A stretch of 64,000 nucleotides of DNA from Trueperaceae bacterium (GTDB taxonomy: Bacteria > Deinococcota > Deinococci > Deinococcales > Trueperaceae): contig JBBDRK010000036.1 of NCBI GenBank assembly GCA_040905465.1, positions 59,375 to 123,374 on the forward strand, in the 5' to 3' direction. Positions 5,275-22,760 of this stretch are shown here, piece after piece. How positions within the stretch are numbered: the stretch's first letter is position 1; each line of letters opens with the position of its first letter. The notes beneath the pieces were generated by a model. The model was not told the DNA's origin, did not search any database, and worked only from the letters and a program-made list of their open reading frames with translations. The position numbers were made by a program, and so were the translations under genes.

Positions 5275-5413
5275 CTCATGCCCCTTTCGAAATTAATCGT
5301 CGGCAACAGCCGTACACAATGTACTCAGTCTACACCCGCTCGAGCCCCGGGGCCCGGCCGGCACGCGGTATCGTTGCAAGGAATCGCGATCCTCGACCAG
5401 CAAAGGAGCTGCC

Positions 5414-6412
5414 ATGAACCTCGCCCGCTTCGCCAGGCGCAGATACACCCCGGAACCGACGCCGCTGGAACCGCTGGAGCATCTCAGCAAACACCTCGGG
5501 GGCCCGGAGATCTGGATCAAGCGTGACGATCTGCTCGGCCTCGCCGGCGGAGGCAACAAGACCCGCAAGCTGGAATTCCTGGTTGCCGACGCCCTGGCCG
5601 AAGGTGCCGACACGCTGGTCACCGTCGGCGCCGTGCAGTCGAACCATTGCCGCCTCACGCTGGCGGCAGCCGTGAAGGAAGGGCTGCGCTGCCGGCTGGT
5701 GCTCGAGGAACGCGTGGCCAACTCGTACGACCCCGACGCCAGCGGCAACAACTTCCTGTTCCGCCTCCTGGGGGTCGAAGCGATCACAGTCGTGCCCGCC
5801 GGCACCGACCTGGCCGATGCTGTCGGCGAGGTGCTCGCCGACCTCGAGGCCGAGGGCCGCAAGGGTTACGCGATTCCGGGAGGAGGGTCCAACGCGCTCG
5901 GCGCGCTAGGTTACGCAGCCTGCGCTCAGGAGATCCTGCACCAGATGTTCAGGCAGAGCCTGACCTTCGACCGGCTCGTATGCGCGAGCGGATCGGGCGG
6001 CACACACGCCGGACTCGTCGCCGGCCTCCACGCCGACTCGGCCGGCCTGCCGGTAGTCGGAGTGAGCGTGCGGGCGGAGCGCGGCCCGCAGGAAGAGAAG
6101 CTCCACGCACTGGCGTTGCAAACGGCCGAACTGGCCGGAAGCCGCAGCGGAGTGCCGCGCGAGGCGATCGCGGTGGTGGACGACTACGTGGGACCTGGTT
6201 ACTCGCTGCCTACCGAGGACATGGTGGAGGCCGTGAGGCTATTCGCGCGACTCGAGGGCATCTTGCTCGACCCGGTCTACACCGGCAAGGCCGCCGCCGG
6301 TCTCGTCGGGATGGCAAGGGGTGGCCAGTTTGACAGCGATGAGCGGGTCCTGTTCCTGCACACCGGGGGCGCACCCGCGCTCTACGCCTACCAAAGCGTG
6401 ATACTCGAGTAG
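5414..6412 (+). CDS. PLP-dependent D-cysteine desulfhydrase / cysteate sulfo-lyase (CuyA/DcyD family)
   Basis: KRDDLLGLAGGGNKTRKLEF (PLP Lys), QSNHCR, SGSGGTHAG, LDPVYTGKA, FLHTGG; AAGGAG RBS. Confidence 0.9.
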   Translation: MNLARFARRRYTPEPTPLEPLEHLSKHLGGPEIWIKRDDLLGLAGGGNKTRKLEFLVADALAEGADTLVTVGAVQSNHCRLTLAAAVKEGLRCRLVLEERVANSYDPDASGNNFLFRLLGVEAITVVPAGTDLADAVGEVLADLEAEGRKGYAIPGGGSNALGALGYAACAQEILHQMFRQSLTFDRLVCASGSGGTHAGLVAGLHADSAGLPVVGVSVRAERGPQEEKLHALALQTAELAGSRSGVPREAIAVVDDYVGPGYSLPTEDMVEAVRLFARLEGILLDPVYTGKAAAGLVGMARGGQFDSDERVLFLHTGGAPALYAYQSVILE

Positions 6413-7146
6413 TGAGCCGGCCGACTCCAACTCTTACGGTGGGAGTGCTCGGCGGTATGGGTCCCGACGCCACCCTCGACTTCTTCGCCAAGTTGCTGGC
6501 GGCGACGCCCGCCGAACACGATCAGGACCGGCTGCGGGTGTTGATCGACAACAACCCGAAGGTGCCGAACCGCAACGAGGCGGTGGCCGGGACGGGACCC
6601 TCGCCGGGTCCGCTGCTGGCCGAGATGGCACTCGGGCTCGAGCGCGCCGGGGCGGACTTCCTGGTGATGCCGTGCAACGCCGCTCACGCCTTCGCGCCCG
6701 AGATCGAGGAGGCGGCGAGCATCCCCTTCGTGAGCATCATCGACGAGACCGTGGCCGCCACGTTGGCGGCGCGGCCCCCTCTCGATCGGGTCGGAGTACT
6801 GGCCGCAGCCGGCTGCCTGGACGCGCGGCTCTACCACTCGGCGTTCGCCCGACATGGCGTGGAGGTGGCAGAGCCCGAGGGCGCGCAGCGCGAGACATTC
6901 ATGGAGCTGCTGTACCGGATCAAGACCGGCGACCGGGGTGCCGAGGTGCGCGCCCGCATGGCCGAGCTGGCCGGACGCCTGATCGACGGCGGCGCCCAGG
7001 CGATCGTGGCCGGCTGTACCGAGGTTCCGCTGGTCCTGGCCGAAGGCGACGTGCCCGGCGTACTGGTGAACTCCACCGACGTCCTCGTGAAGGCGACGGC
7101 GGCGATTGCCACCGGCGAACGATCGTTTGCGGCGACGATCCGATAG
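6412..7146 (+). CDS. PLP-independent amino-acid racemase, Asp/Glu racemase family (candidate cysteate racemase)
   Basis: GVLGGMGPDAT; both catalytic Cys motifs present (MPCNAAH, AGCTEVP); start overlaps the upstream stop. Confidence 0.88.
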   Translation: MSRPTPTLTVGVLGGMGPDATLDFFAKLLAATPAEHDQDRLRVLIDNNPKVPNRNEAVAGTGPSPGPLLAEMALGLERAGADFLVMPCNAAHAFAPEIEEAASIPFVSIIDETVAATLAARPPLDRVGVLAAAGCLDARLYHSAFARHGVEVAEPEGAQRETFMELLYRIKTGDRGAEVRARMAELAGRLIDGGAQAIVAGCTEVPLVLAEGDVPGVLVNSTDVLVKATAAIATGERSFAATIR

Positions 7147-7186
7147 CGGGCCGGAGCGGCGCCCGCCGGCAGATGCCCGTGAATCG

Positions 7187-7214
7187 AGTGAGGAAGCAAC
7201 AAGTGAGGAAGCAA
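7187..7214 (+). repeat. Direct duplication of AGTGAGGAAGCAA containing the RBS
   Basis: Identical 13-mers at 7187-7199 and 7202-7214, immediately before ATG 7214. Confidence 0.7.
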
Positions 7215-8173
7215 TGAACAAGATCGTCGTCTCCGAGTTCCTTCACCGGGACGCGCTCGACCTGCTGGCCGACCGGGCCGACCTCGAGTACGATCCGGGG
7301 CTGCACGAGCGGCCGGTGGACCTGAAGGCCGCGCTCACGGGCGCCGCGGCCCTGGTGGTGCGCAATCAGACGCAGGTCACGGCTCCTCTGCTGGCCGGTA
7401 CCTCGCTGCGCGCGGTGGGCCGGGTCGGTGTCGGCCTCGACAACCTCGACCTGACCGCCTTGCGCGAGGCAGGCGTGACCGTCACCTGGGCGCCCGGCAC
7501 CAACGCCACCAGCGTGGCCGAGTACGTCATCGGAGCGATGCTGTCGCTGGCCCGGCTCTTCCCCGAGACCTCGCCCAAGGTCCACGCCGGGCACTGGGAC
7601 CGTCAGGCGGCGATCGGGTTCGAGCTAAAGGGCCGCACCCTCGGGATAGTCGGACTGGGCGATATAGGCTCGCGTGTGGGCAGGCGCGCTCAGGCCCTCG
7701 GCATGCGGCTGTTGGCCAGCGACCCGGCACTGGGGCCCGAGTCGCCCGCCGTGCGGGAGCTCGGCGCGCGCCTGGTGCCGCTCGCGGAGCTGCTGGCCGA
7801 AGCCGACGTGGTGTCGCTGCACGCTCCGCTGCTGCCATCGACCCTGGGGATGATCGGCAGCGAGACGCTGGCGCTGATGAAGCCCGGCGGCTACTTGATC
7901 AACACCGCCAGGGGCGAGCTGGTGGACGAGAGGGCACTGGCGAGCGTGCTGCGCGACGGCAGGTTGGCGGGAGCCGCGCTCGACGTGCGAGACCCGGAGC
8001 CGCCCGGTGCGAGCGATCCTCTCAAGGGTCTGAGGAACGTGCTGCTCACGCCGCATATCGCCGGAGTGACCGAGGAGTCGCTGCGGCGGGCCTGCACTCA
8101 TGTGGCGGAGGATGTGCTGCGGGTGCTGAGCGGCGAAAGACCGGTGAGCGAGGTGCCGGAAGCAGCGGCGTGA
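7214..8173 (+). CDS. D-isomer-specific 2-hydroxyacid dehydrogenase, (S)-sulfolactate dehydrogenase SlcC-like
   Basis: IVVSEF start, ALVVRNQTQV, AVGRVGVGLDN, NATSVAEYV, GIVGLGDIG, INTARG, LLTPHIAGVTEES. No ACT domain, so not a full-length SerA. Confidence 0.85.
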   Translation: MNKIVVSEFLHRDALDLLADRADLEYDPGLHERPVDLKAALTGAAALVVRNQTQVTAPLLAGTSLRAVGRVGVGLDNLDLTALREAGVTVTWAPGTNATSVAEYVIGAMLSLARLFPETSPKVHAGHWDRQAAIGFELKGRTLGIVGLGDIGSRVGRRAQALGMRLLASDPALGPESPAVRELGARLVPLAELLAEADVVSLHAPLLPSTLGMIGSETLALMKPGGYLINTARGELVDERALASVLRDGRLAGAALDVRDPEPPGASDPLKGLRNVLLTPHIAGVTEESLRRACTHVAEDVLRVLSGERPVSEVPEAAA

Positions 8174-8185
8174 GGGCCCGACGCA

Positions 8186-8229
8186 TTGCGTCCAAAACCT
8201 TGACCCAATGGGACGCAAACCGCTAGGAT
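8186..8229 (+). promoter_or_regulatory. Sigma-70-type promoter overlapped by a TTGCGTCC-N17-GGACGCAA inverted repeat
   Basis: TTGACC 8200-8205, TAGGAT 8224-8229; repeat arms at 8186-8193 and 8211-8218. Confidence 0.55.
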
Positions 8230-8266
8230 TGCACCACACCACCCCCAGGTCAGGAGCGTCGCCCGT

Positions 8267-8767
8267 TTGAAGCCCGCCCCTTACGCACAGCTCGACTCTA
8301 CCGACAGGACGATCGTCGACTTCCTCCGTGAAGACGGCCGGATGCCCTACCGCGAGATCGCGCGGCGACTGGCCGTTTCGGAAAGCATGGTGCGCAAGCG
8401 GGTCAACCGGCTTCTCGACGAGGGCTGGATGCGCATCCTGGCGATCAGCGACCCGTTGCAACTGGGAGTGCCGATCCTCGCCACGACCTACCTGAACGTA
8501 AGCCCTCGGGCGGTGGAAGAGGTTACCGACAGCATCGCCCGTTGCGAGGCGGTGCGTTACGTTGCCCTCGGCATCGGCGCTCACAACGTGGTGGTCGAAT
8601 CGCTTCATGTCGACAACTCGGAGCTGCACCGGTTCATCCAACGCGAGTTGGGATTGGAGGGGATAATAAGCAGCGAGACGATTCAAGTGGTGAAGATCAA
8701 GAAGAGCGTGTGGGACTGGGAGATCAGGACCACACTCCAACCGACAGCTTCCTCAGAATCGGAGTGA
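8267..8767 (+). CDS. Lrp/AsnC family transcriptional regulator
   Basis: LDSTDRTIVDFLREDGRMPYREIARRLAVSESMVRKRVNRL HTH plus C-terminal RAM-like domain; TTG start. Confidence 0.9.
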   Translation: MKPAPYAQLDSTDRTIVDFLREDGRMPYREIARRLAVSESMVRKRVNRLLDEGWMRILAISDPLQLGVPILATTYLNVSPRAVEEVTDSIARCEAVRYVALGIGAHNVVVESLHVDNSELHRFIQRELGLEGIISSETIQVVKIKKSVWDWEIRTTLQPTASSESE

Positions 8768-8772
8768 TCCCA

Positions 8773-10281
8773 ATGATTCGAAACCGTTGCCGCCCCTTGC
8801 TCGCGCTCCTGCTCGCTGCCCTGCTCGGCCTCGCCACCGCTCAGCAGCAGGGCGGAACGCTGACGGCCGCCTGGGCACAGGACCCGGTGGGGCTGGACCC
8901 CCACCTGACCAGCGCCTATTCCAGCTTCCAGATCCTCGAAAACGTCCTGGACACGCTTGTTACGCTCGACGCTGGCCAGAACGTCGTGCCGTCGCTGGCT
9001 GAGTCGTGGGAGTCATCGGAGGACGGCCTGCAGTGGACATTCCACCTCAGGAGCGGCCTCAGCTTCTCGAACGGCCGGGCGCTCACCGCCGACGACGTGG
9101 TGTACACCTTCGAGCGGATGCTCGATCCGGAGACGGGCTCCGGCAACGCCTACCTGCTGGCGGGAGTAACCGACGTGGAGGCGGTCGACGACAGCACTGT
9201 CGTTCTCACGCTCGACGCCCCCAACGTCGCCCTTCTCGGACACCTGGCCGTGAACAAGTCGGTCGGGATCATCGCCCGCGAAAGCGTCGAAGACGGCACC
9301 ATAAACACCCGGCCGATCGGCAGCGGTCCGTTCAGGATCGCCGACTTCCAGCCGGGCACCCTGGTGCGGCTCGAGCGCAACGAGCACTACTGGCAAGATG
9401 GGCTCCCCTACCTCGACGCCATCGACATCCGAATCATTCCCGACGAGTCGGTGCGGCGCACGGCGCTGGTAACGGGCGACGTAGACTGGTCGATCAGCGT
9501 GCCTGCGCAGAGCGTGAGCGATCTCGACAGCAGCGACGAGGTAGTGATCGACCAGACCACGGCCGGCGCCTACTGGTACCTGGGAGTGAATACCGAGCGT
9601 GAACCGCTCGACGATCCCCGGGTGCGGCAGGCACTGTCGTACGCGCTGCAACGCGACAACATCGCCTTGGCAGCCGCTTTCGGCAACGCCCAGGCGACGC
9701 AGGACCCGATCCCCTCGTCGAGCTCGTGGGCGTTCGATTATGCGCCTTACGACTACGATCCGGAGCGCGCTCGTGAGCTCCTGGCCGAGGCCGGAGTCGG
9801 TGACGATTTCGTGCTCGAGCTCATGCCCACCACTCAGTACGAGGAGTCCATCCGCGTCGCCCAGGTGGTGCAGGCCAACCTTGCCGACATCGGCGTACAG
9901 GCGAGCATTCGAACCCTCGAATGGGCCGAATGGCTGGAGGAAGAGGGCGCCGGCAACTACGACACCTACGTGTGCTCATGGAACGCGCTGGTGGACCCCG
10001 ACGACTACTTCTACGCCCAGCACAAGACCGGCGAGGTCTTCAACTTCACCGGCTACAGCAACGACACCGTCGACGAGCTGCTCGAGCGGGGACGCGGCAC
10101 CGAAGACCTGATAGAACGCCTCCCCATCTACGAGCAGATCAACCGCATCATCGTCGATGAGGCTCCCTACATCTACCTCTACAATCCGCTCAACATCCAT
10201 GCCTACCGGCCTTATGTCGAAGGTTTCGAGGCGCGCCCGGATCAGGCCGTGCGCTTCGCGGAGACCTGGCTCGATCGTTGA
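8773..10281 (+). CDS. ABC transporter substrate-binding protein, family 5 (Dpp/Opp/Nik type)
   Basis: Signal peptide, GGTL, LDPH, PSLAESW, TADDVVYTFER, PIGSGPF, VRQALSYA. Confidence 0.92.
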   Translation: MIRNRCRPLLALLLAALLGLATAQQQGGTLTAAWAQDPVGLDPHLTSAYSSFQILENVLDTLVTLDAGQNVVPSLAESWESSEDGLQWTFHLRSGLSFSNGRALTADDVVYTFERMLDPETGSGNAYLLAGVTDVEAVDDSTVVLTLDAPNVALLGHLAVNKSVGIIARESVEDGTINTRPIGSGPFRIADFQPGTLVRLERNEHYWQDGLPYLDAIDIRIIPDESVRRTALVTGDVDWSISVPAQSVSDLDSSDEVVIDQTTAGAYWYLGVNTEREPLDDPRVRQALSYALQRDNIALAAAFGNAQATQDPIPSSSSWAFDYAPYDYDPERARELLAEAGVGDDFVLELMPTTQYEESIRVAQVVQANLADIGVQASIRTLEWAEWLEEEGAGNYDTYVCSWNALVDPDDYFYAQHKTGEVFNFTGYSNDTVDELLERGRGTEDLIERLPIYEQINRIIVDEAPYIYLYNPLNIHAYRPYVEGFEARPDQAVRFAETWLDR

Positions 10282-10284
10282 ATC

Positions 10285-10321
10285 GGTTGCGTCCGGGCGG
10301 TTCCTCCGCCCGGACGCAACC
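10285..10321 (+). terminator. Perfect 16-bp hairpin after the SBP gene (terminator or mRNA stabiliser)
   Basis: GGTTGCGTCCGGGCGG-TTCCT-CCGCCCGGACGCAACC; no strong U tract. Confidence 0.65.
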
Positions 10322-10391
10322 CTCCCTCCATGACCATCCGGCCGGTCCCTAGCTCCCCGGGGCGCCCCGCCCCGAGCCTCCGGAGGCGAAG

Positions 10392-11342
10392 ATGACCCTC
10401 CGCTATCTCATGCAACGAGTCGGCAGCCTGATCCTCGTGCTGTTCGGCGTTTCTCTTCTTACCTTCGCGATCATCCCGCTCATCCCCGGCAGCCCCGCGA
10501 GGGTTCGCCTGGGCGTGCAGGCCACGCCCGAATCGGTCGCCGCCGTGGAGCGTCAACTGGGTCTCGACCGGCCGCTCCCGGTTCAATATGTCGACTGGTT
10601 GGGTGGGATCGTGCTGCACGGCGACTTCGGCGAGAGCCTGATCACCGGCACGCCGATCTCGGGCGAGGTGGCGCGGCGCCTGCCGGCAACCCTGGCACTC
10701 GCCTTCACGGCACTGCTGTTCGGCCTGCTGATCGCCCTGCCTTCCGGTATCATCTCGGCGCTGAAGCCCGGCGGACGGCGTGACCTCACGGTATCGCTCA
10801 TGAGCCAGATAGGAGTCTCGGTCCCTGACTTCTGGATGGGGATACTGATGATCCTGCTGTTCGCCGAGACTCTCGACTGGCTCCCATCCAGCGGCTACGT
10901 CCCCTTGGCGCAAGGCTTCCTGCCGTGGCTCAGCCATATTTTGCTTCCGGCCGCCACCGTCGGCATCATCAGCGGCTCGATCATGGCTCGCTTCGTGCGC
11001 GGCGCGATGCTGGAGGTGCTGCGTAACGACTATGTCCGCACGGCCCGGGCCAAGGGCCTGCGCGAAGGCGCGATACTCGTCAAGCACGTCTTGCGCAACG
11101 CGGCCATTTCGGTGGTCACCATCGTCGGCCTGCAGATGGCCACGCTCTTCTCCGCCGTCGTAGTGGTGGAGATCATCTTCGCCTGGCCCGGGCTGGGGTC
11201 GATGGCGCTCAATGCCACGCTGCAGCGAGACTATCCGCTGCTGCAGGCCGCGGTGCTGAGCGCGGCGGGAGCGTTCGTTATCATCAACCTCCTCACCGAC
11301 CTGTCCTACGTTCTCCTGGACCCGAGCGTCGAATATGCCTGA
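10392..11342 (+). CDS. Peptide/nickel ABC permease (DppB type)
   Basis: LGLDRPLPVQY, GDFGES, EAA loop DYVRTARAKGL, RDYPLLQ. Confidence 0.93.
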   Translation: MTLRYLMQRVGSLILVLFGVSLLTFAIIPLIPGSPARVRLGVQATPESVAAVERQLGLDRPLPVQYVDWLGGIVLHGDFGESLITGTPISGEVARRLPATLALAFTALLFGLLIALPSGIISALKPGGRRDLTVSLMSQIGVSVPDFWMGILMILLFAETLDWLPSSGYVPLAQGFLPWLSHILLPAATVGIISGSIMARFVRGAMLEVLRNDYVRTARAKGLREGAILVKHVLRNAAISVVTIVGLQMATLFSAVVVVEIIFAWPGLGSMALNATLQRDYPLLQAAVLSAAGAFVIINLLTDLSYVLLDPSVEYA

Positions 11343-12237
11343 GGCCGGCAGGACCGAGACGGGCTCGCTCACCACGACGCCGTCACGTGGCGCAGGCACG
11401 AAGGGCGCCGCGGCACGCTTCTTCGCCCGCTTCCTGCGCCACCGCCTGGCCCTGGCCGGCACCCTGATAGTCCTCCTGCTCACAGTTACCGCCCTGTTCG
11501 GCGGCGCCTACGCCCCTTACAGCCCAACCACCATGGATTTCAGCGCCCAGTTCGCGCCGCCCAGCCTGGCCCATCCCTTCGGCACCGACGAGTTCGGACG
11601 CGACCTGTTCTCACGCGTTCTGCACGGCGCAGCCATCTCCTTGCGGGTGGCGTTGATCGCCGTCGGCATCTCATCGCTGGTCGGCGTGACGCTCGGGGTC
11701 CTGGCGGGCTTCCTGGGCGGCTGGGTCGACGAGCTGACTATGCGCTTCATGGACGTCCTCTTCGCCTTCCCGGCGGTCCTGCTGGCGATAACCGTGATGG
11801 CGATCCTCGGACGCGGCGTCGGAAACGCGATGATCGCCATCGCCATCGTCTACATCCCGATCTTCGCGCGGATAACGCGAGGAGCGGTAATCGGCGTGCG
11901 TGGCCGGGAGTTCGTCACTGCCGCCAGGGCTCTGGGCGTGCGTCCGGGCGGCATCATGCTGCGCCACGTGCTCCCCAACGCCACCGGTCCCATCATCGTA
12001 CAGACCTCGCTGAGCCTGGCGTTCGCCATCCTCGCGGAGGCGGCGCTGTCGTTCTTCGGCCTGGGAACCCAGCCTCCCGCTCCGTCGTGGGGCAGGATGC
12101 TGGCAGAGGGCCGGGCGTACCTGGGGCAGGCACCCTGGATGGGTATCTTCCCGGGGCTGGCGATAATGGTGTCGGTGATGGGCTTCAACCTCCTCGGTGA
12201 CGGACTGCGCGACCTGCTCGACCCGCGCCTCAAGTGA
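11335..12237 (+). CDS. Peptide/nickel ABC permease (DppC type)
   Basis: HPFGTDEFGRDLFSR, EFVTAARALG, HVLPN, EAALSFFGLG, NLLGDGLRDLLDP. Confidence 0.93.
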   Translation: MPEAGRTETGSLTTTPSRGAGTKGAAARFFARFLRHRLALAGTLIVLLLTVTALFGGAYAPYSPTTMDFSAQFAPPSLAHPFGTDEFGRDLFSRVLHGAAISLRVALIAVGISSLVGVTLGVLAGFLGGWVDELTMRFMDVLFAFPAVLLAITVMAILGRGVGNAMIAIAIVYIPIFARITRGAVIGVRGREFVTAARALGVRPGGIMLRHVLPNATGPIIVQTSLSLAFAILAEAALSFFGLGTQPPAPSWGRMLAEGRAYLGQAPWMGIFPGLAIMVSVMGFNLLGDGLRDLLDPRLK

Positions 12238-14525
12238 CCGACAGAGAGACGACGGATAGCGCCCCGAAGCTGCCCAGGGTGGCGTTCGCCCTGGCACTCC
12301 TGACGGGTGGCGGACTGCTGTTCGAAATTGCTCTCACCCGCGTGCTGTCGGTCCTGTACTTCTCGACATTCAGCTATCTGGTCCTGTCGATCGCCGTGCT
12401 CGGCCTGGCGGCCGGGGCAGCACTGGCGGCGCTGTGGCCGCAGTTGCGCCAACCTCGGCACTGGCCGCTGTGGGCCGTTCTTGCCGGCGCCGGCGCGCTG
12501 CTTCTCACCCTGATCCCGCTGGCGGGAGCCGCCGCCGGGCTGCGCTCGTTCCTGTTTCCCCTCACGGCACTCCCTTACCTCTTCCTCGGACTGGCGGTGG
12601 CGGGCATCTTCGCGATGCGGTCGGAATCCAGTCCACGCCTGTACCTCGCCGACCTGGCGGGGGCCGGTCTGGGAGCGCTGCTTGCCGTGCCGCTCCTGGA
12701 CTGGTTGGGAGGCCCTGGCGGAATGCTGGCGGCGGCGTGCGCGGCGGCGCTGGCGGCGGTGGTGCTGGCTCCGGGCAAGGCGCTGTCGACCGCAGCGCTC
12801 GCCGCTTGCGTGGCGGCGCTGGCCCTGCACTCGGCCGGGCTGGGCCCGCGGCTCGACCTCCGCGAGATGGCGAGCCCCAAACCGGTACGCCAGTCGCTGC
12901 GGGCGGGTGGCGAGGTGGCCTCCACCCGCTGGGACTCGTTCGCCCGCAGCGACCTGATCCGTTTCGAGGAGGACGACCGGTACCTCATCTACCTCGACGG
13001 CGCCGCCGGCTCGCTGGTCCCGGACGCGGACCGTCAGGAAACCTGGCTGACGGACGTCGGAGCGCTTGCCTTTGCGGTCGACCCGCCCCGCAGCGCCTTC
13101 CTGATCGGACCGGGCGGCGGACTCGACCTGGCGCTGGCGCGCCGGTTCTCTGTTCCCAGGGTGGTCGCGGCCGAAATCAACCGCGGCGCCGTGGAGCTGA
13201 CCAGAGCCCTGGAGCATCACGCCGGCGACCTCTACGGTTCCCCCACCGAACTGCACATCGACGACGGCCGCAGCGCATTACGGCGGCTGGACGAGCAGTT
13301 CGAGCTGATACTGCTGTCGCAGGTGGTCAGCCAGGCCGCCGAAGCCCGTGGCCTGGCGCTGGTGGAGAACGGCCTCTACACCGTAGAGGCGTTCGACGCC
13401 TACCTCGACCACCTGGCCCCCGGCGGCCGCGTCGCCCTCAAGCTCTACGACGAGCTCACGCTCACCCGCGCGATCGTCACCGCGCTGCGCACCCTGACGG
13501 AGCGGGGGGTTCCGCTGGCAGTGGCGCCACGTCACCTCTTCGCCGCGCTCGACACCCGCGCGTCTCCTCCGGTGCCGCTGCTCATGGTGTCCGCCGAACC
13601 ACTGTCCGACGAGCGGGCCGTCGACTGGGCGCGCGCTGGCGAAGCACGGGACCTGGGGCTGTTGTTCGTTCCCGGCCTTCTTGCACCGCCGGCGCTGGCC
13701 GCACTTCTGGACGGAAGCGCCGGCATCGCCAGCATCGCCCGGGGAGCGAGCGATCTGGATCTCAGCGCCACCCGTGACGACCGGCCGTTCTTCTATCAGT
13801 TCGAACGCGGCCTCCCACGACCGCTCCGGCCGCTGGTCGTCGGGGTGCTCTCCTTGCTTGCGCTTGCCCTGTTGGCAGGCGGCTGGTGGACGCGCCGCCG
13901 ACCGGCGGAACTGCGCGCCGCTCCCGTGCTCTTCGCAGCCCTCGGTTCGGGCTTCATGCTGGTCGAGATAACGGTTCTGCAGCGAACCCAGCTCCTGATC
14001 GGACATCCGGCGCTGGCGCTGGCGGCGATCCTGGCCGCCCTCCTGCTGGGCGCGGCAACCGGTTCCGGTTTGGCGAGCCGTGCCGCGGGCGGCCGCGAAT
14101 ACCCGTGGGTGGCGAGGGCCGCCGGAGCTACGGCACTCCTCGTGCTGGCATGGCTCTTCGCCTGGCCCGCCGCCGCTGACGCGATGGGCTCACTGTCGCC
14201 TGTGTCGGCGTCCCTCGGCTCGGCGCTCTCGATACTGCCGCTGGCGGTGATGATCGGCGCGCCTTTTCCGCTGGCGTTGCGCTCGATCGGCCGCCACGGT
14301 CCGCGCGAAGTGGCGCTCGCCTGGGCCATGAACGGCGTCGCCACGGTTGCCGGAGCGGTCGCCGCGACCGCCCTCGCCATCGTATTCGGATTCTCGGCGG
14401 CACTGGCAACCGCGGCGATTATCTACGCCGTGACCGCCATGACCGCCTGGCTCCTGACCAGGCAACGCGCTTCGCCGTCCGGCTACGGCTCTACCAGCAC
14501 GCTGCCCGCCTCCAGCGACTTCTGA
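12234..14525 (+). CDS. Polytopic membrane protein with a central class I SAM-dependent methyltransferase (spermidine-synthase-like) domain
   Basis: TM bundles at both ends, LYLADLAGA, IGPGGGLD, AAEIN, DDGRS, LYTVEAF, ATRDDRPFFY, AWAMNG; GTGA overlap with the permease. Confidence 0.8.
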   Translation: MTDRETTDSAPKLPRVAFALALLTGGGLLFEIALTRVLSVLYFSTFSYLVLSIAVLGLAAGAALAALWPQLRQPRHWPLWAVLAGAGALLLTLIPLAGAAAGLRSFLFPLTALPYLFLGLAVAGIFAMRSESSPRLYLADLAGAGLGALLAVPLLDWLGGPGGMLAAACAAALAAVVLAPGKALSTAALAACVAALALHSAGLGPRLDLREMASPKPVRQSLRAGGEVASTRWDSFARSDLIRFEEDDRYLIYLDGAAGSLVPDADRQETWLTDVGALAFAVDPPRSAFLIGPGGGLDLALARRFSVPRVVAAEINRGAVELTRALEHHAGDLYGSPTELHIDDGRSALRRLDEQFELILLSQVVSQAAEARGLALVENGLYTVEAFDAYLDHLAPGGRVALKLYDELTLTRAIVTALRTLTERGVPLAVAPRHLFAALDTRASPPVPLLMVSAEPLSDERAVDWARAGEARDLGLLFVPGLLAPPALAALLDGSAGIASIARGASDLDLSATRDDRPFFYQFERGLPRPLRPLVVGVLSLLALALLAGGWWTRRRPAELRAAPVLFAALGSGFMLVEITVLQRTQLLIGHPALALAAILAALLLGAATGSGLASRAAGGREYPWVARAAGATALLVLAWLFAWPAAADAMGSLSPVSASLGSALSILPLAVMIGAPFPLALRSIGRHGPREVALAWAMNGVATVAGAVAATALAIVFGFSAALATAAIIYAVTAMTAWLLTRQRASPSGYGSTSTLPASSDF

Positions 14526-15484
14526 GCAGCCAGGCAGAGCGCCACCGCCGCACAGCCGTCCTCGGCCGTGGCCGGCGTTGGCCCCCATCCGTAGATAGCC
14601 GCCAGGAACGCCCTGGTCTGCCGCGGCACGTCGAAGGCATGTCCGGTCTCCCGCGATAGCGGCACGACCTCGGTCCCGCCAGAGTCGTGACGAGTGAGGC
14701 TCACCACCGGTTCCGGGTCCATGTCGGACTTACCGCGCCAGGAGGCGCGAAGAGCACCCTCCTCGGCTATCAGCATGAGCGTCACCTGGTGTCCGAACGC
14801 CGCTATCGAGCGCGTGACCCAGGAACGCCCGTCCGATTCGTGCTCGAGCCTTATCTCCAGGTTCTCCCACAGGTCCTCGCGGCCGGCCCGGCTGCTGCCC
14901 CATGCCTGCACGCCCGCGACCGGCCCTAGGTACCAGCGCGCCAGGTCGAGATAGTGGATCGGTTCCTCGAGTATCGTCGATCCCAGCTTGCCCGGGTCGG
15001 ACTTCCAGCCCCCAGAACCGGAGCGGTAGGGCCGCCGCCACAGGTCGAGCTTCAGATGCAGCGGCGCCCCCAGGTCACCAGAATCCACGATCCGCCTTAC
15101 CTCGGCGAAGAGACCGAAGACCCGCATCTCGTGGCCCACCGCAACCAGCCGCCCGGTCCTCTCGCCGGCGTCCAGGACCTCTCGACATTCGGCGTTGCTC
15201 AACGCCATCGGCTTCTCGATCAGCACGTGCCTTCCGCTCGCGAGGACAGCGAGCGCATGGCCGGCGTGGAGGTAGTTGGGGCTGGCGACGATAACGGCCT
15301 CGCTCGCTATCCCCAGGAAGGCGTCCAGATCGGTTTCCACGGGAACGCGCCACTCCTGGCGCAACCGCTCGGCGCTGCTCTCGCTCTCGACCAGGACTGC
15401 CGCGAGCTCGCCGCCGACGGCTCGCAACGCGTTGCGGTGAACGGCCCCCCAGCGTCCGCCGCCGATGAGCCCGACTCGGGTCAC
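14483..15484 (-). CDS. Gfo/Idh/MocA family NAD(P)-dependent oxidoreductase
   Basis: VGLIGGGRWG, ASPNYLH, VLIEKPMA, EEPIHYLD. Confidence 0.9.
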   Translation of the reverse strand: MTRVGLIGGGRWGAVHRNALRAVGGELAAVLVESESSAERLRQEWRVPVETDLDAFLGIASEAVIVASPNYLHAGHALAVLASGRHVLIEKPMALSNAECREVLDAGERTGRLVAVGHEMRVFGLFAEVRRIVDSGDLGAPLHLKLDLWRRPYRSGSGGWKSDPGKLGSTILEEPIHYLDLARWYLGPVAGVQAWGSSRAGREDLWENLEIRLEHESDGRSWVTRSIAAFGHQVTLMLIAEEGALRASWRGKSDMDPEPVVSLTRHDSGGTEVVPLSRETGHAFDVPRQTRAFLAAIYGWGPTPATAEDGCAAVALCLAAQKSLEAGSVLVEP

Positions 15485-16551
15485 GGCGACGGCGCCCCAT
15501 CAGCCGGAGTGAGCGAACCGAGCAGTTCGGGATGCACGTCGCAACGCCCTTCCACCGAACCGAGAACGGCCAACGAGATACGCAATGCCGCTATGCCGTC
15601 GTCGATCGTCGCCAGCCTGCCGAACAGCGGGTCGCCGCTATCGGCCGCTGCCGGATCTCCCCTGATCTCGGCGGCGAAGGCGTCGATCTCGGCCCGCCAC
15701 GGATCCAGGTCCCCGCTGCTCCATCTGGTTACGCCGTCGGCGCCGTGCAGGCTTACCTCATCGGGCCAGTCCACGCTCAGCAGTCCGTTTGGCCCAATAT
15801 AGCTGTGGCGCTCGATCGGAACGATCCCGCTGGGCAACCCCCACGAAACCTGCACCTGCCCCACTCCGCCGCAGGGATACGCAAGCGTCAGGTGGGCGCT
15901 GTCGAGAGCCTTGCGCGCGATACTGGCCACCTCGGGCTTCTGTTCGCTGAACGTGTAGCCGTGCGCTCGGACAACCAGCGGCGGCTCGCCGAAGAGCAGG
16001 CCCCACTGATCGAAGATGTGGCAGCACATGTCGATGATGGGACCGCCGTTGGCGGCGGCGTCGTGCATCAGCAGCTTCGGGCGCACCCCGGCGGCGATAG
16101 TGGCCTGGGCCAGGAGCGGCCGGCCGATGCTTCGGCTGAATGCCAGAATCCGCTGCCAGGCGGGATCGAAGCGGCGCATGAATCCGATCCGCAACACTGT
16201 GGCGGAGTCCGCCGCCGCTTCCTTCATAGCCAGCGCCTCCTCCAACGTGAGGGCCGCCGGTTTCTCGCACAGCACATGCTTGCCGGCTTGCAGGGCGGCT
16301 ATCGTGTGCGCGGCATGCAGGAAGGTGGGGGTGCAGACCGATACCGCCTCTACCTCGGCCAGGGCCAGACCATCCTCGATCTGGCCGAGCGCTCGGGCAC
16401 CGTGCCGGGCGGCCAGGACTTCCGCCCGAATGCGGTCGGGGTCGAATACCGCAGCTATCCGGCCACCGCACTCCTTCCAGTGTCGGGCATGCCGCGTTCC
16501 CATCTCGCCGGCGCCAAGCACCATGACCCCCGGGGAAGCCGGACCGGTCAT
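15481..16551 (-). CDS. Gfo/Idh/MocA family NAD(P)-dependent oxidoreductase
   Basis: VLGAGEMG, CTPTFLH, VLCEKPAA, GFMRRFDP, IDMCCHIFD; ATGA overlap with the aldolase stop. Confidence 0.9.
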   Translation of the reverse strand: MTGPASPGVMVLGAGEMGTRHARHWKECGGRIAAVFDPDRIRAEVLAARHGARALGQIEDGLALAEVEAVSVCTPTFLHAAHTIAALQAGKHVLCEKPAALTLEEALAMKEAAADSATVLRIGFMRRFDPAWQRILAFSRSIGRPLLAQATIAAGVRPKLLMHDAAANGGPIIDMCCHIFDQWGLLFGEPPLVVRAHGYTFSEQKPEVASIARKALDSAHLTLAYPCGGVGQVQVSWGLPSGIVPIERHSYIGPNGLLSVDWPDEVSLHGADGVTRWSSGDLDPWRAEIDAFAAEIRGDPAAADSGDPLFGRLATIDDGIAALRISLAVLGSVEGRCDVHPELLGSLTPADGAPSP

Positions 16552-17624
16552 GAGCCGTACCTGCGGTGCCAGCCGCGGCCGCCCAGCTCCAGTGCGGCCG
16601 CACCACGGTAGCGCGGATGGGAGAACCATGGTCGTCCCGAGTCCGCCAGGCCGGCGATCGAGCGGAGGAACGGCAACGACTCGCTCTCCAGCTTCGCGCG
16701 CACGGCCGGGAGGTCGGGGTACGGTTCGAGCGCGCCGAACCAGACCGCCCGGCCGGCCAGGAAGCCGCTCGCTCCAGCGGCGATGGCGAGCTCGATATCG
16801 ACAGCGAACTCGCGTTGGCCCACGCCGGCCGACAGCAGCACCCATGGAACGGGACAGGACTCGTCCAACTCGCGCAGGCACGCTTCCACTTCGGCAAGCC
16901 GGTATGCGACCGGCCGCTCGCGGCCGTCGAAGGCGCCTCCGGCGAACTCACGGGTGTGCTTGAGGTCGGCCGGGAACTCGAGCTTGAAGAGATCCACGCC
17001 GAAGCGGTCCTCGGCGAAGTGCCGTAATGATGCCAGCACCCGCTGCGGCTTGAGCCTGGCGTAGTCGAGCCCGTCGCTGCGCTCGTCTCCCTTGGGGTAG
17101 AGCAGCAGTTCCAGGATGAACGGGATGTCGTGCTCTCGGCAGGCCGCACCTACGCCTTCGACGAACGCGTCCTGGTGTGCGGCCGCCGCGGCGGACAGGT
17201 CGGGCCGGTGATAGGCGAGCACCTTCACCCCCGACGCTCCGCTGCGCTTTATCTTGGCCACGCTCCAGCCCTCTATCGGCACCGAGTAGCGCTCTCCGCC
17301 CTTTTCCTCGAATGCGTAGTCCTCCAGGGTCGAGACGAGCCCTACCCGACCGGGGATGAAAGCCAGGGCGTCCGGGTGCGCCCAGATGGGATCAACCAGG
17401 ATGGCGCTGGCGTGGGAAGCGAGTCCGGCGACCAGCAGCGTCTTGACGGCGGCGATCTCCTCGTCGCGAACGTCCTCGAGGCGCCTCTCGCCGTGGCGGG
17501 CAAGGGCCCGGAACAGGGGCGGACGCTGATCGACGGCCACCATCTTGAAGAGCCCGCGGTCGTCCGCGAGCGTCTGCAGGCAGCGGAATTTGCCGGCGCT
17601 CAGAAGCGCCTTCGGCTGGCTCAT
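16548..17624 (-). CDS. Class I aldolase of the tagatose-1,6-bisphosphate (LacD) / sulfofructosephosphate (YihT) family
   Basis: KMVAVDQR, ASAILVDP, DLFKLEFP (Schiff-base Lys), PWVLLSAGV, GASGFLAGRAVW; GAGGAG RBS. Confidence 0.88.
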   Translation of the reverse strand: MSQPKALLSAGKFRCLQTLADDRGLFKMVAVDQRPPLFRALARHGERRLEDVRDEEIAAVKTLLVAGLASHASAILVDPIWAHPDALAFIPGRVGLVSTLEDYAFEEKGGERYSVPIEGWSVAKIKRSGASGVKVLAYHRPDLSAAAAAHQDAFVEGVGAACREHDIPFILELLLYPKGDERSDGLDYARLKPQRVLASLRHFAEDRFGVDLFKLEFPADLKHTREFAGGAFDGRERPVAYRLAEVEACLRELDESCPVPWVLLSAGVGQREFAVDIELAIAAGASGFLAGRAVWFGALEPYPDLPAVRAKLESESLPFLRSIAGLADSGRPWFSHPRYRGAAALELGGRGWHRRYGS

Positions 17625-17661
17625 GGTGCTCTCCTCGGTTTCGCCTGCGCAGCGCGCGAAG

Positions 17662-18639
17662 TCATCGGGCACGCCTCGGCGCTGAAGCCTGAGTCGGTCG
17701 GGCCGGGCGCTCCTTCAGCGCCTGCTCGACCTCGACCAACGTGGGTATGGCGGAGCGCCCCACCCCGGTGCACGACAGTGCCGCGCAGACGAGCGCCAGC
17801 TCGGCGCAGCGCTCCGGTCCCCAACCCGACGCCATCCCGAACGCGTAGGCGCCGTGGAACACGTCACCGGCGCCGGTAGTGTCGACCGCCTCGACCTCGT
17901 GGGCGGGAAGGTAGTGCACTCCGGCGCCGGCGTCGTAAAGATACCCTTCCGTGCCCAGCGTCACTCCCACGTACTGACCAGGCCGCCAGCGCATTGCGGC
18001 CAGGGCGGACTCGGGATCGGACCGGCCCAGCACCTCGCGCGCGCACTCTTCCGAGGCGATGACCACGTCCAGCCCCTCGCTTTCCTCCCAGTAGCGGGCG
18101 GTTCCCAAGTCGCCGATGCTCGGTACGCCTCGTGCGGCGGCCCAGTCGAGGGCCGCCCGGCACAGGTTCGGATGCCGGAAATCGACCAATAGCGCGCCCG
18201 GCGGCGGCGAAGTCACGGACGCCGGCGGCCGGTCGTCGAGGCCGGAACCGCGATAGGGAAAGATGTAGCGCTCGCCGTCGGGGGCCACCAGCACTCCGCT
18301 GACCCAGGAGACCGCTCCGGGCGTCACCCGTACGCCGCTGGTGTCCACTCCCAGCCGCTCGAGCTCCGCCAGCGCGAACCGTCCGGCCGGGTCGTCTCCG
18401 TGCAACGCCCACAGGTGCGGGCGTCCCCCCAGCCTGGCGACAGTCACGGCCGCCGTGGCAGCCGGACCGCCACCCTGCAAGCGATATCCGCTCGCGTCGG
18501 TCCGCGATCCCGCCGGCGGAAATCTCTCCACCTGCCAGATGTGATCCACACAGGAGAGTCCGGCGCAGAGCACGACCGGGGAGGCGGCTTCGGGCACAAT
18601 CGCGTTTCGCTCAGCGGGAGTATCCACCGTTGCCGCCAC
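17662..18639 (-). CDS. PfkB family sugar kinase, sulfofructose kinase YihV-like
   Basis: GGGPAATAAVTVARLG, DGER, LVDFRH, VDTTGAGDVFHGA. Start uncertain (GTG at 18639, 18627 or 18597). Confidence 0.88.
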   Translation of the reverse strand: MAATVDTPAERNAIVPEAASPVVLCAGLSCVDHIWQVERFPPAGSRTDASGYRLQGGGPAATAAVTVARLGGRPHLWALHGDDPAGRFALAELERLGVDTSGVRVTPGAVSWVSGVLVAPDGERYIFPYRGSGLDDRPPASVTSPPPGALLVDFRHPNLCRAALDWAAARGVPSIGDLGTARYWEESEGLDVVIASEECAREVLGRSDPESALAAMRWRPGQYVGVTLGTEGYLYDAGAGVHYLPAHEVEAVDTTGAGDVFHGAYAFGMASGWGPERCAELALVCAALSCTGVGRSAIPTLVEVEQALKERPARPTQASAPRRAR

Positions 18640-18836: not shown

Positions 18837-20096
18837 ATGAGACGACGACAGTTCACCATTGTGGCGATGCTGATCCTCGTGCTGTTGGTCCCGCTGGCGT
18901 CGGCCCAAGCGCTCCGGGTTTTCATCGGCTCGACGCTGAGGCCCGACGTGATCGGTCCCATCCTCGAACAGTTCACTGCCGAGACCGGCATCGACACCGA
19001 ACTCGAACTGGGCGGAGCGACGACCGACGTTCGCCAGCAATACCTCTCAACTGTGCTCACCAGCCGCAGTGGAGAGATAGACGTGTTCCTGTTCGACGTG
19101 ATCGATCCGCCCCAGTACGCCGCCACGGGCTGGGCCGAGCCGCTCAACGATTACTTCGATGGCGAGGCGGAGATGCGGGAGTTTCTCGACCCGTACCTCG
19201 ACGGCACCGTGCAGGCGAACCTGGTCGACGGCACGCTCTACGGCATCCCTGCCTGGACCGACGCCCAGTTCCTCTACTACCGGACCGACCTGCTGGAGAA
19301 GTACGGATTCGAGCCGCCGAGCACCTGGAGCGAGCTGAAGCAACAGGCGCTGGTCATCCAGGAGGGCGAAGGCGATCCGAACCTGCAGGGCTTCAACTAC
19401 CAGGGCGCGGCCATCGAGGGCGCCAACTGCACCTTCCTCGAGCCGCTGTGGAGCGCCGGCGGCGACTGGCGCGACAGCGACGGGAACATCACCGTCGACA
19501 GCCCGGAGGGGCGAATGGTGCTCGACTGGTATCAGGAGACCATGGACTCCGGCATCACTCCGAGCAACATCGCGGAAGTGGCCACAGACGACTCGCGCCA
19601 GCAGTTCCAGGCCGGCGACGTTGTGTACATGCTGAACTGGGGTTACGCCTGGGCGCACTTCCAGGGCGAGGAGAGCCCGGTCAGGGGCATGGTCGGGGTG
19701 GCGCCGTTGCCCGCCTTCGAGGGGGGCCAGTCGGCCACCTGCGTGGGCGGATTCCAGTGGGCAATGAACCCGTTCAGCGACAACAAGGCGGATGCGTTCG
19801 AGCTCATGAAGTACATGGCCAGTGAAGACAGCCAGCGCACCCTGGCGGTCGAAGCCAGCCACATCCCGGCGCGCGACAGCCTCTACGGCGACGACGCCGT
19901 ACTCGAGGCCGCGCCGCACTTCGAGCAGTTCCATGACGTCATCGTCAACGCCCGGCCGCGACCGCAGACCGAGTTCTACAGCGAGGTGAGCGAGCTGATT
20001 CGCACCACCATGAACGCCTTCCTGGCGCAGGCGATGGACGCCGACGAAGCGCTCGACACCATGCAGACGGGCCTCGAAGACATATTCGGACTCTGA
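18837..20096 (+). CDS. Sugar ABC transporter substrate-binding protein (family 1)
   Basis: Signal peptide, LYYRTDLLEKYG, PSTWSEL, FQAGD, ARPRP; AGGAGG RBS. Confidence 0.92.
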   Translation: MRRRQFTIVAMLILVLLVPLASAQALRVFIGSTLRPDVIGPILEQFTAETGIDTELELGGATTDVRQQYLSTVLTSRSGEIDVFLFDVIDPPQYAATGWAEPLNDYFDGEAEMREFLDPYLDGTVQANLVDGTLYGIPAWTDAQFLYYRTDLLEKYGFEPPSTWSELKQQALVIQEGEGDPNLQGFNYQGAAIEGANCTFLEPLWSAGGDWRDSDGNITVDSPEGRMVLDWYQETMDSGITPSNIAEVATDDSRQQFQAGDVVYMLNWGYAWAHFQGEESPVRGMVGVAPLPAFEGGQSATCVGGFQWAMNPFSDNKADAFELMKYMASEDSQRTLAVEASHIPARDSLYGDDAVLEAAPHFEQFHDVIVNARPRPQTEFYSEVSELIRTTMNAFLAQAMDADEALDTMQTGLEDIFGL

Positions 20097-20112
20097 GGGC
20101 AGCACCCGGAGT

Positions 20113-20137: not shown

Positions 20138-20142
20138 TTCTG

Positions 20143-21243
20143 ATGGCGGCTACGTCGGCACCCTACCGCCGGCCCGGCCCCTTGCAGCGGTTGCTGCGTG
20201 GCAACCCGAGCGAGACTCAACTCGCCTGGCTGCTGCTGTTGCCGGCACTGCTGACCCTGGCAGTGGTGATGCTCTACCCGGTACTCAACGTAGTCTGGCA
20301 ATCGCTCCACTTCGAACGGCTGAACCTGCCACAACGAGGCACGCCGTTCATCGGGCTGGAAAACTTCCGCGACATGCTGTGGGGCCGGAGCATGACCTGG
20401 GGCCCCGGTCACCTGTGGGGCTGGCGGATCGCCGGACTGGCGGCGCTTGCTCCGGTCTGGTGGGCGCTGCCTTGGCGCCGGGCGCTGCCGTGGACGGTGC
20501 TGATCCTCCTGGTGTTCGCCCTCCTGCTCGGCTTCCACCCCGGCGAGGACGGCCGCTGGAACGACCGGCGTTTCTGGGGCTCCTTTCGGATCACCATGCT
20601 GATAATTATGGTCAGCGTGATCGGCTCGTTCCTGGTGGGCCTGCCGCTGGCGCTGCTGGCTAACGTGTCGTCGCGCTGGCGCTGGCTGGTTCGGGTGGCG
20701 CTGCTCCTGCCCTGGGCGATGCCGCGGGTGTTCGCCGGGCTCACCTTCGCCTGGCTGTTCCAGAGCCGCTACGGGGTGGTAAACGACCTGATCGGCCAGA
20801 TCGGCCTGACCGGGCCCCTGTGGCTCGCCCGGGTGACCCCGGCGGTGATCGCCGTCAACCTGGCGATAGTCTGGAAGACCTCCTCGTTCGTGGGCCTGAT
20901 CCTCCTGGCCGGCCTGCAGTCGATCGACCGCAGCCTCTACGAAGCCGCCACCGTCGACGGCGCCAACGCCTGGCAGCGCTTCTGGCGCATAACTCTGCCG
21001 CTTTTGCGGCCGGCCATCGCAGTGGCCCTGATCTTCCGGACGCTGACCGCGGTGCAGACCTTCGACATTCCCTACGCCATGACCCGAGGCGGGCCCGGCA
21101 GGTCGCTGGAAACCCTCGGAATCTACATCTACAACAGCACGCTGGCGCTCAATATCGGCTACGCCGCGGCCCTCTCGGTGGTCTTGTTCCTGCTCAGCCT
21201 CTCGATCACCGTCATCTATCTCCGCTGGCTCTACCGCGAATGA
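20143..21243 (+). CDS. Sugar ABC permease (MalF type) with an extra Trp-rich hydrophobic insert
   Basis: FIGLENF, LAGLQSIDRSLYEAATVDGA, ITLPLLRP, MTRGGPG. Confidence 0.92.
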   Translation: MAATSAPYRRPGPLQRLLRGNPSETQLAWLLLLPALLTLAVVMLYPVLNVVWQSLHFERLNLPQRGTPFIGLENFRDMLWGRSMTWGPGHLWGWRIAGLAALAPVWWALPWRRALPWTVLILLVFALLLGFHPGEDGRWNDRRFWGSFRITMLIIMVSVIGSFLVGLPLALLANVSSRWRWLVRVALLLPWAMPRVFAGLTFAWLFQSRYGVVNDLIGQIGLTGPLWLARVTPAVIAVNLAIVWKTSSFVGLILLAGLQSIDRSLYEAATVDGANAWQRFWRITLPLLRPAIAVALIFRTLTAVQTFDIPYAMTRGGPGRSLETLGIYIYNSTLALNIGYAAALSVVLFLLSLSITVIYLRWLYRE

Positions 21244-22758: not shown

Positions 22759-22760
22759 CG

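Follow-up and report, generated by a model that had tools for sequence, protein, structure and literature searches.

A 64,000-nucleotide stretch from a Trueperaceae bacterium (contig JBBDRK010000036.1 of assembly GCA_040905465.1, positions 59,375 to 123,374; hereafter the window, its host genome being labelled G000) carries an operon of three genes, cuyA, cuyB and an slcC-like gene (genes 1, 2 and 3). We read it, with a probability of roughly two in three, as the desulfonating half of a sulfosugar pathway that would lead from a sulfohexose through (S)-sulfolactate and cysteate to pyruvate, ammonia and sulfite. An earlier note on this DNA had proposed a compact sulfolactate/cysteate desulfonation module, and the proposal is borne out by the hidden Markov model (HMM) cut-offs for CuyA and CuyB and by tree, motif and gene context for the SlcC-like enzyme. 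Two matters had been overlooked, namely that the three genes would add up to a route only with the help of an aminotransferase, which the operon lacks, and that a probable sulfosugar-splitting (sulfoglycolysis) cluster, the likely source of the sulfolactate, lies 6 kb downstream, at 14483-24714.

The cuyA, cuyB and slcC-like genes

Three intact open reading frames (ORFs) occupy 5414-6412, 6412-7146 and 7214-8173, all on the + strand. Gene 1 (332 amino acids) is preceded by a ribosome-binding site, AAAGGAG (5402..5408, + strand), and its TAG stop has base 6412 in common with the GTG start of gene 2 (244 amino acids), so that the two genes are coupled. This overlap, together with the PF00291 and PF01177 domains and the residues Cys88 and Cys202, agrees with the initial description of a pyridoxal 5'-phosphate (PLP) lyase translationally coupled to a two-cysteine racemase. 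Gene 3 (319 amino acids) is not coupled to gene 2 because it starts at ATG 7214, after a gap of 67 nt; the start proposed by the ORF finder, TTG 7106, is unlikely, as a purine-rich GAGGAAG precedes ATG 7214 and the alignments with homologues begin at residue 1-4. A 13-nt direct repeat of two copies with a period of 15 (7187..7214, + strand) contains the ribosome-binding site of this gene. No terminator-like site was found in 5100-8900. Close homologues show 73-80% identity and bear the source name Trueperaceae bacterium.

Gene 1 adopts the PLP fold-type II (PF00291) and, among the models for CuyA, DcyD, 1-aminocyclopropane-1-carboxylate (ACC) deaminase and XcbE, passes only that for CuyA (NF052482, 517.7 bits against a cut-off of 450), staying below the cut-offs of three DcyD models (301.7/429, 288/469 and 288.1/610 bits), ACC deaminase (246.4/392) and XcbE (276/450). 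The active-site residues Asn48, Lys49 (the PLP lysine), Ser76, Asn77, Tyr289 and Thr317 are present and match the list for StDcyD/CuyA, including the D-selective Tyr287, but this list is common to DcyD too and does not discriminate. Gene 2 is a PF01177 protein with Cys88 in PCN and Cys202 in GCTE; it falls short of the Asp/Glu racemase equivalog cut-offs and exceeds that of the CuyB model NF052483 (270.7/190). The best solved relatives are 7YSK ("D-cysteine desulfhydrase") for gene 1 and the aspartate racemase 1JFL for gene 2. These profile results support the assignment of genes 1 and 2 as D-cysteate sulfo-lyase CuyA and cysteate racemase CuyB, and with it the suggestion that they serve C3-sulfonates rather than D-cysteine.

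This half of the operon is another member of already known families, and Trueperaceae CuyA and CuyB are tabulated in the supplement of PMC11193023 (8 rows of one table and 7 of the following one). The same paper shows that CuyA favours D-cysteate over L-cysteate by a factor of about 50, that its activity is 17% on D-serine and 4% on D-cysteine, and that CuyB is able to racemise cysteate (PMC11193023). CuyA scored above its cut-off in 28 of 61 relatives, and 26 of those 28 had CuyB as well. A second, distant DcyD/XcbE-like PLP enzyme is encoded on another contig of G000 (C43, L094:331-1572); it is 36% identical to CuyA and lies under all cut-offs.

Gene 3 consists of PF00389 and PF02826 only, without a C-terminal regulatory domain, as expected from the earlier description of the third gene as a 2-hydroxyacid dehydrogenase lacking an ACT domain, and all parts of the motif pattern cited for it could be located: VSEF (6-9), VRNQT (49-53), GRVG (69-72), SVAEY (100-104) and TPHIAG (279-284). 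In the alignment, Arg50-Asn51 stands at the position of the Arg-Ser motif reported for the beta3-alpha3 loop of SerA (PMC6303947). Arg50, Asn51, Arg70, Arg130, Arg233, Glu262 and His281 were invariant in 25 of 25 aligned homologues. Gene 3 keeps the Arg-Glu-His triad and the three arginines expected to bind the anionic C3 group, the roles of these residues being those described in PMC6303947 and generally for the family. On the SerA model TIGR01327 it reaches 276 of 454 bits, but this cut-off depends on length and would be out of reach for a short type III SerA too; G000 encodes a separate long serA on another contig, beside an aminotransferase, with 602 bits against the same 454. Judged by its sequence, gene 3 is not SerA. 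Its best solved relative is the phosphoglycerate dehydrogenase 1WWK, and its database homologues are mostly named D-3-phosphoglycerate dehydrogenase, with some named "(S)-sulfolactate dehydrogenase".

The phylogenetic position of gene 3 was examined in a quick tree of 56 rows, built after removal of 11 rows that were duplicate or truncated; 22 distant relatives from a scan of genome contigs served only as outgroups. A branch with an approximate likelihood-ratio (SH-aLRT) value of 97 sets apart 25 of the 56 rows, comprising gene 3, 11 orthologs from the family, three suyAB/comC-linked enzymes from a second family within the order and 10 from proteobacteria, nine of these 10 adjoining comC. Around the 13 non-family enzymes on this side, a ComC homologue adjoins 12 and suyB is near seven. 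The same context recurs in five plasmid matches examined among the best-ranked (H1-H4 and H7), where a ComC homologue lies beside gene 3's counterpart in all five and suyB in four, in the textbook suyAB-transporter-slcC-comC layout or most of it; the first of these matches lies in S. mexicanum ITTG R7, which Table S6 of PMC12421959 lists with SlcC, ComC and SuyAB. Clade membership, motif and context thus support gene 3 as SlcC-like, a probable (S)-sulfolactate dehydrogenase, in line with the original identification, the reference being context-defined SlcC proteins that stood in for the characterised Chromohalobacter salexigens sequence. The expectation that these genes would be auto-annotated as dcyD and serA was right for the database homologues, which carry the labels "D-cysteine desulfhydrase" and mostly "D-3-phosphoglycerate dehydrogenase", and no longer right for NCBIfam 2026, which already names CuyA and CuyB.

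The downstream sulfosugar cluster and its distribution

The region 14483-24714 encodes a class I aldolase, an isomerase and a PfkB kinase, together with a sugar ATP-binding cassette (ABC) system and two oxidoreductases of the Gfo/Idh/MocA family; residue lists for their comparison were taken from PMC8795539, PMC8006165 and bioRxiv 2023.03.13.532361. The aldolase (16548..17627, - strand) is of the LacD/YihT family and exceeds the cut-off of NF009498 (302.8 versus 184); it is a probable sulfoketohexose-1-phosphate aldolase. Its best PDB match is 8TNF (E 1e-68, listed as a DUF2090 protein), with YihT at E 2e-15; 8TNF is probably a sulfosugar aldolase of Paracoccus strain Merri, but the text of the corresponding paper does not name the entry. 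The kinase (17662..18639, - strand) has sulfofructose kinase 7AG6 as its second-best PDB match (E 3e-31) and is a probable sulfofructose kinase. The sugar-binding protein (18837..20096, + strand) matches SmoF 7NBZ best (E 1e-99, the next match being at 6e-72) and keeps Thr220 and Gly166, which make direct sulfonate contacts, while the water-binding His13 and Gln46 are replaced by Leu and Arg and Ser43, a backbone contact, by Thr. It is followed by two sugar ABC permeases recognised in domain scans (20143..22106, + strand) and by a fucose/arabinose-isomerase-like protein (23290..24714, + strand), a probable sulfoquinovose isomerase whose only NCBIfam match is the SftI model NF048012 and which is 40-42% identical to the isomerase of clusters that also carry comC, slcC and suyAB. 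The two oxidoreductases, assigned by domain, are encoded next to the aldolase on the - strand: Gfo A (14483..15484) is kept behind the aldolase in relatives, and Gfo B (15481..16551) gave one match in the plasmid search, itself in another sulfosugar-like cluster, whereas Gfo A gave none there. Between the permeases and the isomerase, two short ORFs at 22186-23180 resemble, by eye, a nucleotidyltransferase/HEPN toxin-antitoxin pair; they are not at this place in the mapped relatives.

Another family of the order has three genomes (G047, G051 and G059; loci L065, L067 and L066) in which orthologs of the isomerase, the kinase and the binding protein, at 39-44% identity, cluster with comC, slcC, suyB and suyA, with GntR also in the cluster and, in two of the three, an ortholog of the aldolase. 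This clustering ties the gene set at 14483-24714 to sulfonate metabolism.

We then surveyed 102 family genomes of at least 85% completeness, with orthologs called at E <=1e-75 for gene 3 and E <=1e-80 for the aldolase. CuyA was found in 84 genomes, the aldolase ortholog in 38 and the gene 3 ortholog in 31, all 31 of which also have CuyA. Gene 3 and the aldolase occurred together in 26 genomes, gene 3 only in five, the aldolase only in 12 and neither in 59; by genus (35 in all), 14 had both and two and one had a single one. The survey includes an unpublished genome, G034, without which the genomes with both number 25 and the gene 3 carriers 30. Among CuyA genomes, the slcC-like gene was present in 26 of 37 with the aldolase and in five of 47 without it. 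In 19 of the 31 carriers, gene 3 and cuyA are no more than 4.5 kb apart, and in 16 the aldolase is within 12 kb of gene 3; nine carriers show both kinds of proximity and five neither. The association of gene 3 with cuyA is hence not due to chance, and the two are co-oriented where mapped. Of the genomes with gene 3 only, G124 (L201) has the whole sugar cluster minus the aldolase abutting slcC-cuyB-cuyA, and G127 has both Gfo genes adjoining gene 3 on a short contig.

SuyB occurred in seven of the 102 genomes, all of one genus, three of them gene 3 carriers. ComC-family (PF02615) genes were present in 39, including 15 carriers, and were rejected as partners that track gene 3, given 15 of 31 carriers versus 24 of 71 non-carriers (p 0.19). 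No carrier among the 31 had SuyB and a ComC-family gene together. One genus of the family (G149, L198:4450-12429) combines a separate tripartite transporter, a Gfo gene, suyB, suyA and a different 2-hydroxyacid dehydrogenase, and no ComC-family gene was found in the genome.

The proposed route and its rivals

In the route that we propose, the cluster at 14483-24714 would import a sulfohexose, most likely sulfoquinovose (SQ) or a glycoside of it, and isomerise, phosphorylate and cleave it to dihydroxyacetone phosphate and (S)-sulfolactaldehyde, as homology and context suggest. An unlinked aldehyde dehydrogenase may oxidise (S)-sulfolactaldehyde to (S)-sulfolactate, which gene 3, from its clade, motif and context, would convert with NAD+ to sulfopyruvate; sulfoglycolysis is indeed thought to yield (S)-sulfolactate, the substrate of SlcC (PMC11193023). 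In G000, SuyA, SuyB, ComC and ComD gave no match and no Xsc passed its cut-off, which leaves CuyA as the only desulfonase found. With neither ComC/SuyAB nor ComDE/Xsc found, sulfopyruvate could reach this desulfonase only by transamination, presumably to L-cysteate by an unlinked housekeeping aminotransferase of the aspartate type. In Methanosarcina, the interconversion of L-cysteate and sulfopyruvate is catalysed by a general aspartate aminotransferase (PMC12713407). Full-length matches to the class I/II aminotransferase family number five in G000; none is linked, and one, on contig C7 at about 12450-13610, is aspartate-aminotransferase-like. Because transamination gives the L form, the racemase stands between the aminotransferase and the D-selective lyase: CuyB would racemise L-cysteate and CuyA would cleave D-cysteate to pyruvate, ammonia and sulfite, both predictions resting on HMM membership and on activities known for homologues only. 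CuyA and CuyB probably also serve free cysteate, likely their older role in the family, and we propose that slcC is an adaptor added where a sulfosugar cluster is present. G000 also has, elsewhere and unlinked, two TauE-family genes, one PF03601 exporter-family gene and one sulfite-oxidase-family gene; its only HpsN-like match is 35% identical.

Several observations weigh against this reading. The isomerase, kinase and aldolase families are all present in one cluster, but the isomerase reaches 124 bits on the SftI model, far under the cut-off of 700, and the KRN triad of the kinase reads R-R-P, with Arg138 kept, Lys27 changed to Arg and Asn109 to Pro. The mapped relatives show no aminotransferase in or near the operon, the one exception being L055, where a class I enzyme lies, unlinked, 3 kb away from cuyA. 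Within the cluster, neither a sulfolactaldehyde dehydrogenase nor a reductase was recognised; nine of the G000 aldehyde dehydrogenases matched no sulfolactaldehyde-specific model, and the best candidate, on contig C27, resembles ordinary succinate-semialdehyde dehydrogenases more than it resembles RlGabD 8C54. Likewise, no sulfoquinovosidase (GH31 YihQ or GH188 SqgA) was recognised in the cluster or found in G000, where the GH31 enzyme scores as alpha-xylosidase-like and below cut-off, and Gfo A and B match the GH188 entries 8QC2/8QC3 no better than unrelated Gfo proteins do. With G000 at 95% completeness, such absences mean "not found". In the survey, slcC is missing from 12 genomes with the aldolase, and the aldolase from three slcC genomes of a single genus; the counts are not tree-corrected, so that Fisher values overstate the association among non-independent kin.

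The two Gfo proteins are left as candidates, without sequence support, for the sulfoquinovosidase and the sulfolactaldehyde dehydrogenase. Two divergent genes that flank cuyA in many relatives, deoC (4282-5274) and a two-domain aldehyde dehydrogenase (1860-4271), were considered as necessary parts and rejected, being present in five of five and four of five CuyA-negative genomes tested, respectively; the aldehyde dehydrogenase could still oxidise sulfolactaldehyde.

The strongest rival, which we regard as improbable, holds that CuyA and CuyB act on external cysteate only and that gene 3 oxidises sulfolactate with no transaminase joining the two, so that sulfopyruvate exits otherwise, or that gene 3 runs in reverse and sulfolactate is excreted. 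The lack of a linked aminotransferase fits this view, as do the 53 of 84 CuyA genomes without slcC, where CuyA and CuyB evidently stand alone well, and the seven genomes in which slcC lies by the sugar cluster and away from cuyA. It has to contend, however, with the missing ComC-SuyB pair in all 31 slcC carriers, with ComD and Xsc not being found in G000, and with the close placement of slcC and cuyA in 19 of the 31, the two being co-oriented where mapped. A second rival, to which we give slightly less credence still, accepts the C3 route and assigns the cluster to another sulfosugar, either a sulfo-polyol or an epimer, of which sulfofucose is an example; the Gfo enzymes would then adjust stereochemistry. 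Such a substrate would accommodate the imperfect isomerase and kinase signatures, the failure to find a sulfoquinovosidase and an aldolase to which YihT is less close than 8TNF and the tagatose-bisphosphate aldolases are; in Paracoccus, moreover, a cluster PfkB kinase and PF01791 aldolase are not induced by sulfofucose, and the strain does not grow on SQ (PMC12421959). Yet the binding protein finds its best match in SmoF, which binds SQ-glycerol, and retains both of the direct sulfonate contacts; among sulfosugars, moreover, SQ is far ahead of all others in abundance (PMC13436972). That the database labels are right, the operon encoding a D-cysteine desulfhydrase, an Asp/Glu racemase and a short (type IIIH) phosphoglycerate/hydroxypyruvate dehydrogenase with no sulfonate link, is very unlikely, for although the source names of the homologues, the solved relatives 7YSK, 1JFL and 1WWK, the active-site residues common to DcyD and the side activities of characterised CuyA on D-serine and D-cysteine (PMC11193023) would allow it, the DcyD, SerA and Asp/Glu racemase cut-offs are missed and those of CuyA and CuyB exceeded, a separate serA exists, and gene 3 has Arg-Asn rather than Arg-Ser and tracks the sulfosugar cluster.

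Neighbouring genes, other genomes and known systems

The operon is followed by a gene for an Lrp/AsnC-family regulator (8267..8767, + strand; profile scan), whose link to the pathway is unproven and before which lies one sigma-70-like site (8200-8229); it follows the cuy genes in several relatives, some without slcC. Next come a family-5 (peptide-type) ABC binding protein and two permeases (8773..12237, + strand; ORF list and profile scan). The block 8267-14525, which also holds a 763-residue membrane protein with no Pfam or NCBIfam match at the thresholds used and whose permeases come without an ATPase, follows cuyAB in several relatives, again including some that lack slcC, and possibly serves uptake of cysteate or cysteate peptides. 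Farther on, 27777-30196 holds two RIO1-like kinase ORFs in tandem, followed by a topoisomerase IB-like ORF (30224-31360), and 44686-48077 a phosphonate/phosphate ABC set (PhnD, C, E, E), all labelled by eye; similar ABC sets adjoin cuyAB in L070-L072 and L208.

Beyond the family, metagenome loci were found with the gene 3 alignment, and the best 80 of 443 were examined (38-61% identity, clade membership not being verified per locus). Within these best 80 of 443, a ComC homologue was present in 23 (three of them weak and 5-8 kb off), suyB in 11 and cuyB in three. Nine (L125, L126, L127, L128, L145, L149, L152, L174 and L179) have a PRK08197 threonine-synthase-like gene directly upstream of the SlcC-like gene, never with comC, suyB or cuyA, and often hold transaldolase, isomerase, kinase or aldolase genes in a sulfoglycolysis-like arrangement. 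Two exits never occurred together in the best 80 of 443, and 45, many of them short, had none. This pattern suggests the PRK08197 PLP enzyme as a candidate third C3 desulfonation exit; against it, a Bilophila "threonine synthase" had no cysteate lyase activity (PMC11193023).

A broader proposal, which we advance tentatively and hold somewhat less probable than not, is that 26 of the 102 Trueperaceae genomes, about a quarter, encode complete single-cell SQ mineralisation with carbon cleavage, through a variant sulfo-Embden-Meyerhof-Parnas (sulfo-EMP) pathway, SlcC, a housekeeping aminotransferase, CuyB and CuyA. More broadly, the SlcC clade would be a hub with three mutually exclusive exits, namely ComC/SuyAB, CuyB/CuyA and an as yet undescribed PRK08197 enzyme that may cleave L-cysteate directly.

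Two further clusters were noted. At L189:1134-14627, a YihQ over its cut-off, an SftI-like isomerase, a kinase, a class II aldolase, an aldehyde dehydrogenase, slcC, comC and suyAB form one cluster, a further candidate, by gene content, for single-cell SQ mineralisation. The cluster at L213:1-14669, on a plasmid of Candidatus Chlorohelix allophototropha, combines a GabD-like dehydrogenase, sulfite reductase and siroheme genes, a phosphofructokinase, an SftI-like isomerase, an ABC system, a Gfo gene, a 2-hydroxyacid dehydrogenase and a PRK08197 enzyme, and looks like one for sulfosugar use as a sulfur source. Its dehydrogenase, 41% identical to gene 3, lacks the Arg-Asn motif and was not counted as an ortholog.

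Each enzyme family discussed here is already known, as is the C3 route with SlcD as its entry; what is probably new is SlcC feeding CuyB/CuyA, linked to a probable sulfo-EMP cluster, for which we found no earlier listing in the literature searched. The searches, whose scope excluded the subscription papers (Denger 2009, 2010; Liu 2021) and the supplements of reviews and preprints, returned no cuyA-cuyB-slcC operon and no sulfoglycolysis in Deinococcota, and the string "Deinococc" is absent from the main text of PMC13436972, PMC12890257, PMC13372026, PMC9594981, PMC12421959 and PMC11382572. The locus is thus a compact candidate in a phylum that the main text of the reviews and surveys searched leaves unmentioned. 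One cell may here carry out both the splitting of sulfoquinovose and the desulfonation, a job usually shared between two species; carbon-cleaving SQ catabolism in a single cell is stated in PMC13436972 as not yet shown. The assignment also corrects the common dcyD/serA annotation across a family with CuyA in 84 of 102 genomes, and the locus offers a setting for finding the sulfopyruvate aminotransferase.

The conversion of sulfolactate to sulfopyruvate and L-cysteate, followed by CuyB and CuyA, is one of three known routes, its aminotransferase gene being unknown (PMC11382572). In the "CuyA pathway" of Ruegeria pomeroyi and Roseovarius nubinhibens, the intermediates and the end products pyruvate, ammonia and sulfite are the same, but entry is by SlcD, with sulfolactate made from 2,3-dihydroxypropane-1-sulfonate via HpsN (PMC11382572), whereas here an SlcC-clade enzyme shares an operon with cuyA and cuyB and the likely sulfolactate source is the cell's own sulfoglycolysis. 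The CuyB-CuyA pair of Bilophila wadsworthia belongs to the same two families by curated HMM and is likewise encoded by neighbouring genes (Liu et al. 2024, PMC11193023); that locus supports anaerobic respiration and also encodes RidA and an SDF transporter, while in the window a 2-hydroxyacid dehydrogenase follows and a sulfosugar cluster is nearby. The D-cysteinolate cluster hpsN-cuyC-cuyA-cuyB (PMC12814064) is also an accessory module feeding L-cysteate to CuyB/CuyA, although the Trueperaceae locus has no cuyC or hpsN. With the SlcC-ComC-SuyAB system of Chromohalobacter salexigens, the likeness lies in gene 3, which groups with enzymes of slcC-comC(-suyAB) clusters, including four that Halomonadaceae genomes encode; in G000, where ComC and SuyAB were not found, stereochemistry would be corrected at cysteate, by CuyB, and not at sulfolactate. 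A further parallel is the tandem sulfofucose pathway of Paracoccus wurundjeri, in which sulfofucose cleavage and SlcC/ComC/SuyAB homologues are found in one cell (PMC12421959). Both systems would join sulfosugar cleavage to C3 desulfonation, both have an SlcC homologue and in both the sulfolactaldehyde dehydrogenase is unidentified, yet the Paracoccus pathway is of the Entner-Doudoroff type, acts on sulfofucose and ends in SuyAB (PMC12421959), whereas the one proposed here appears to be of the EMP type and to end in CuyB/CuyA.

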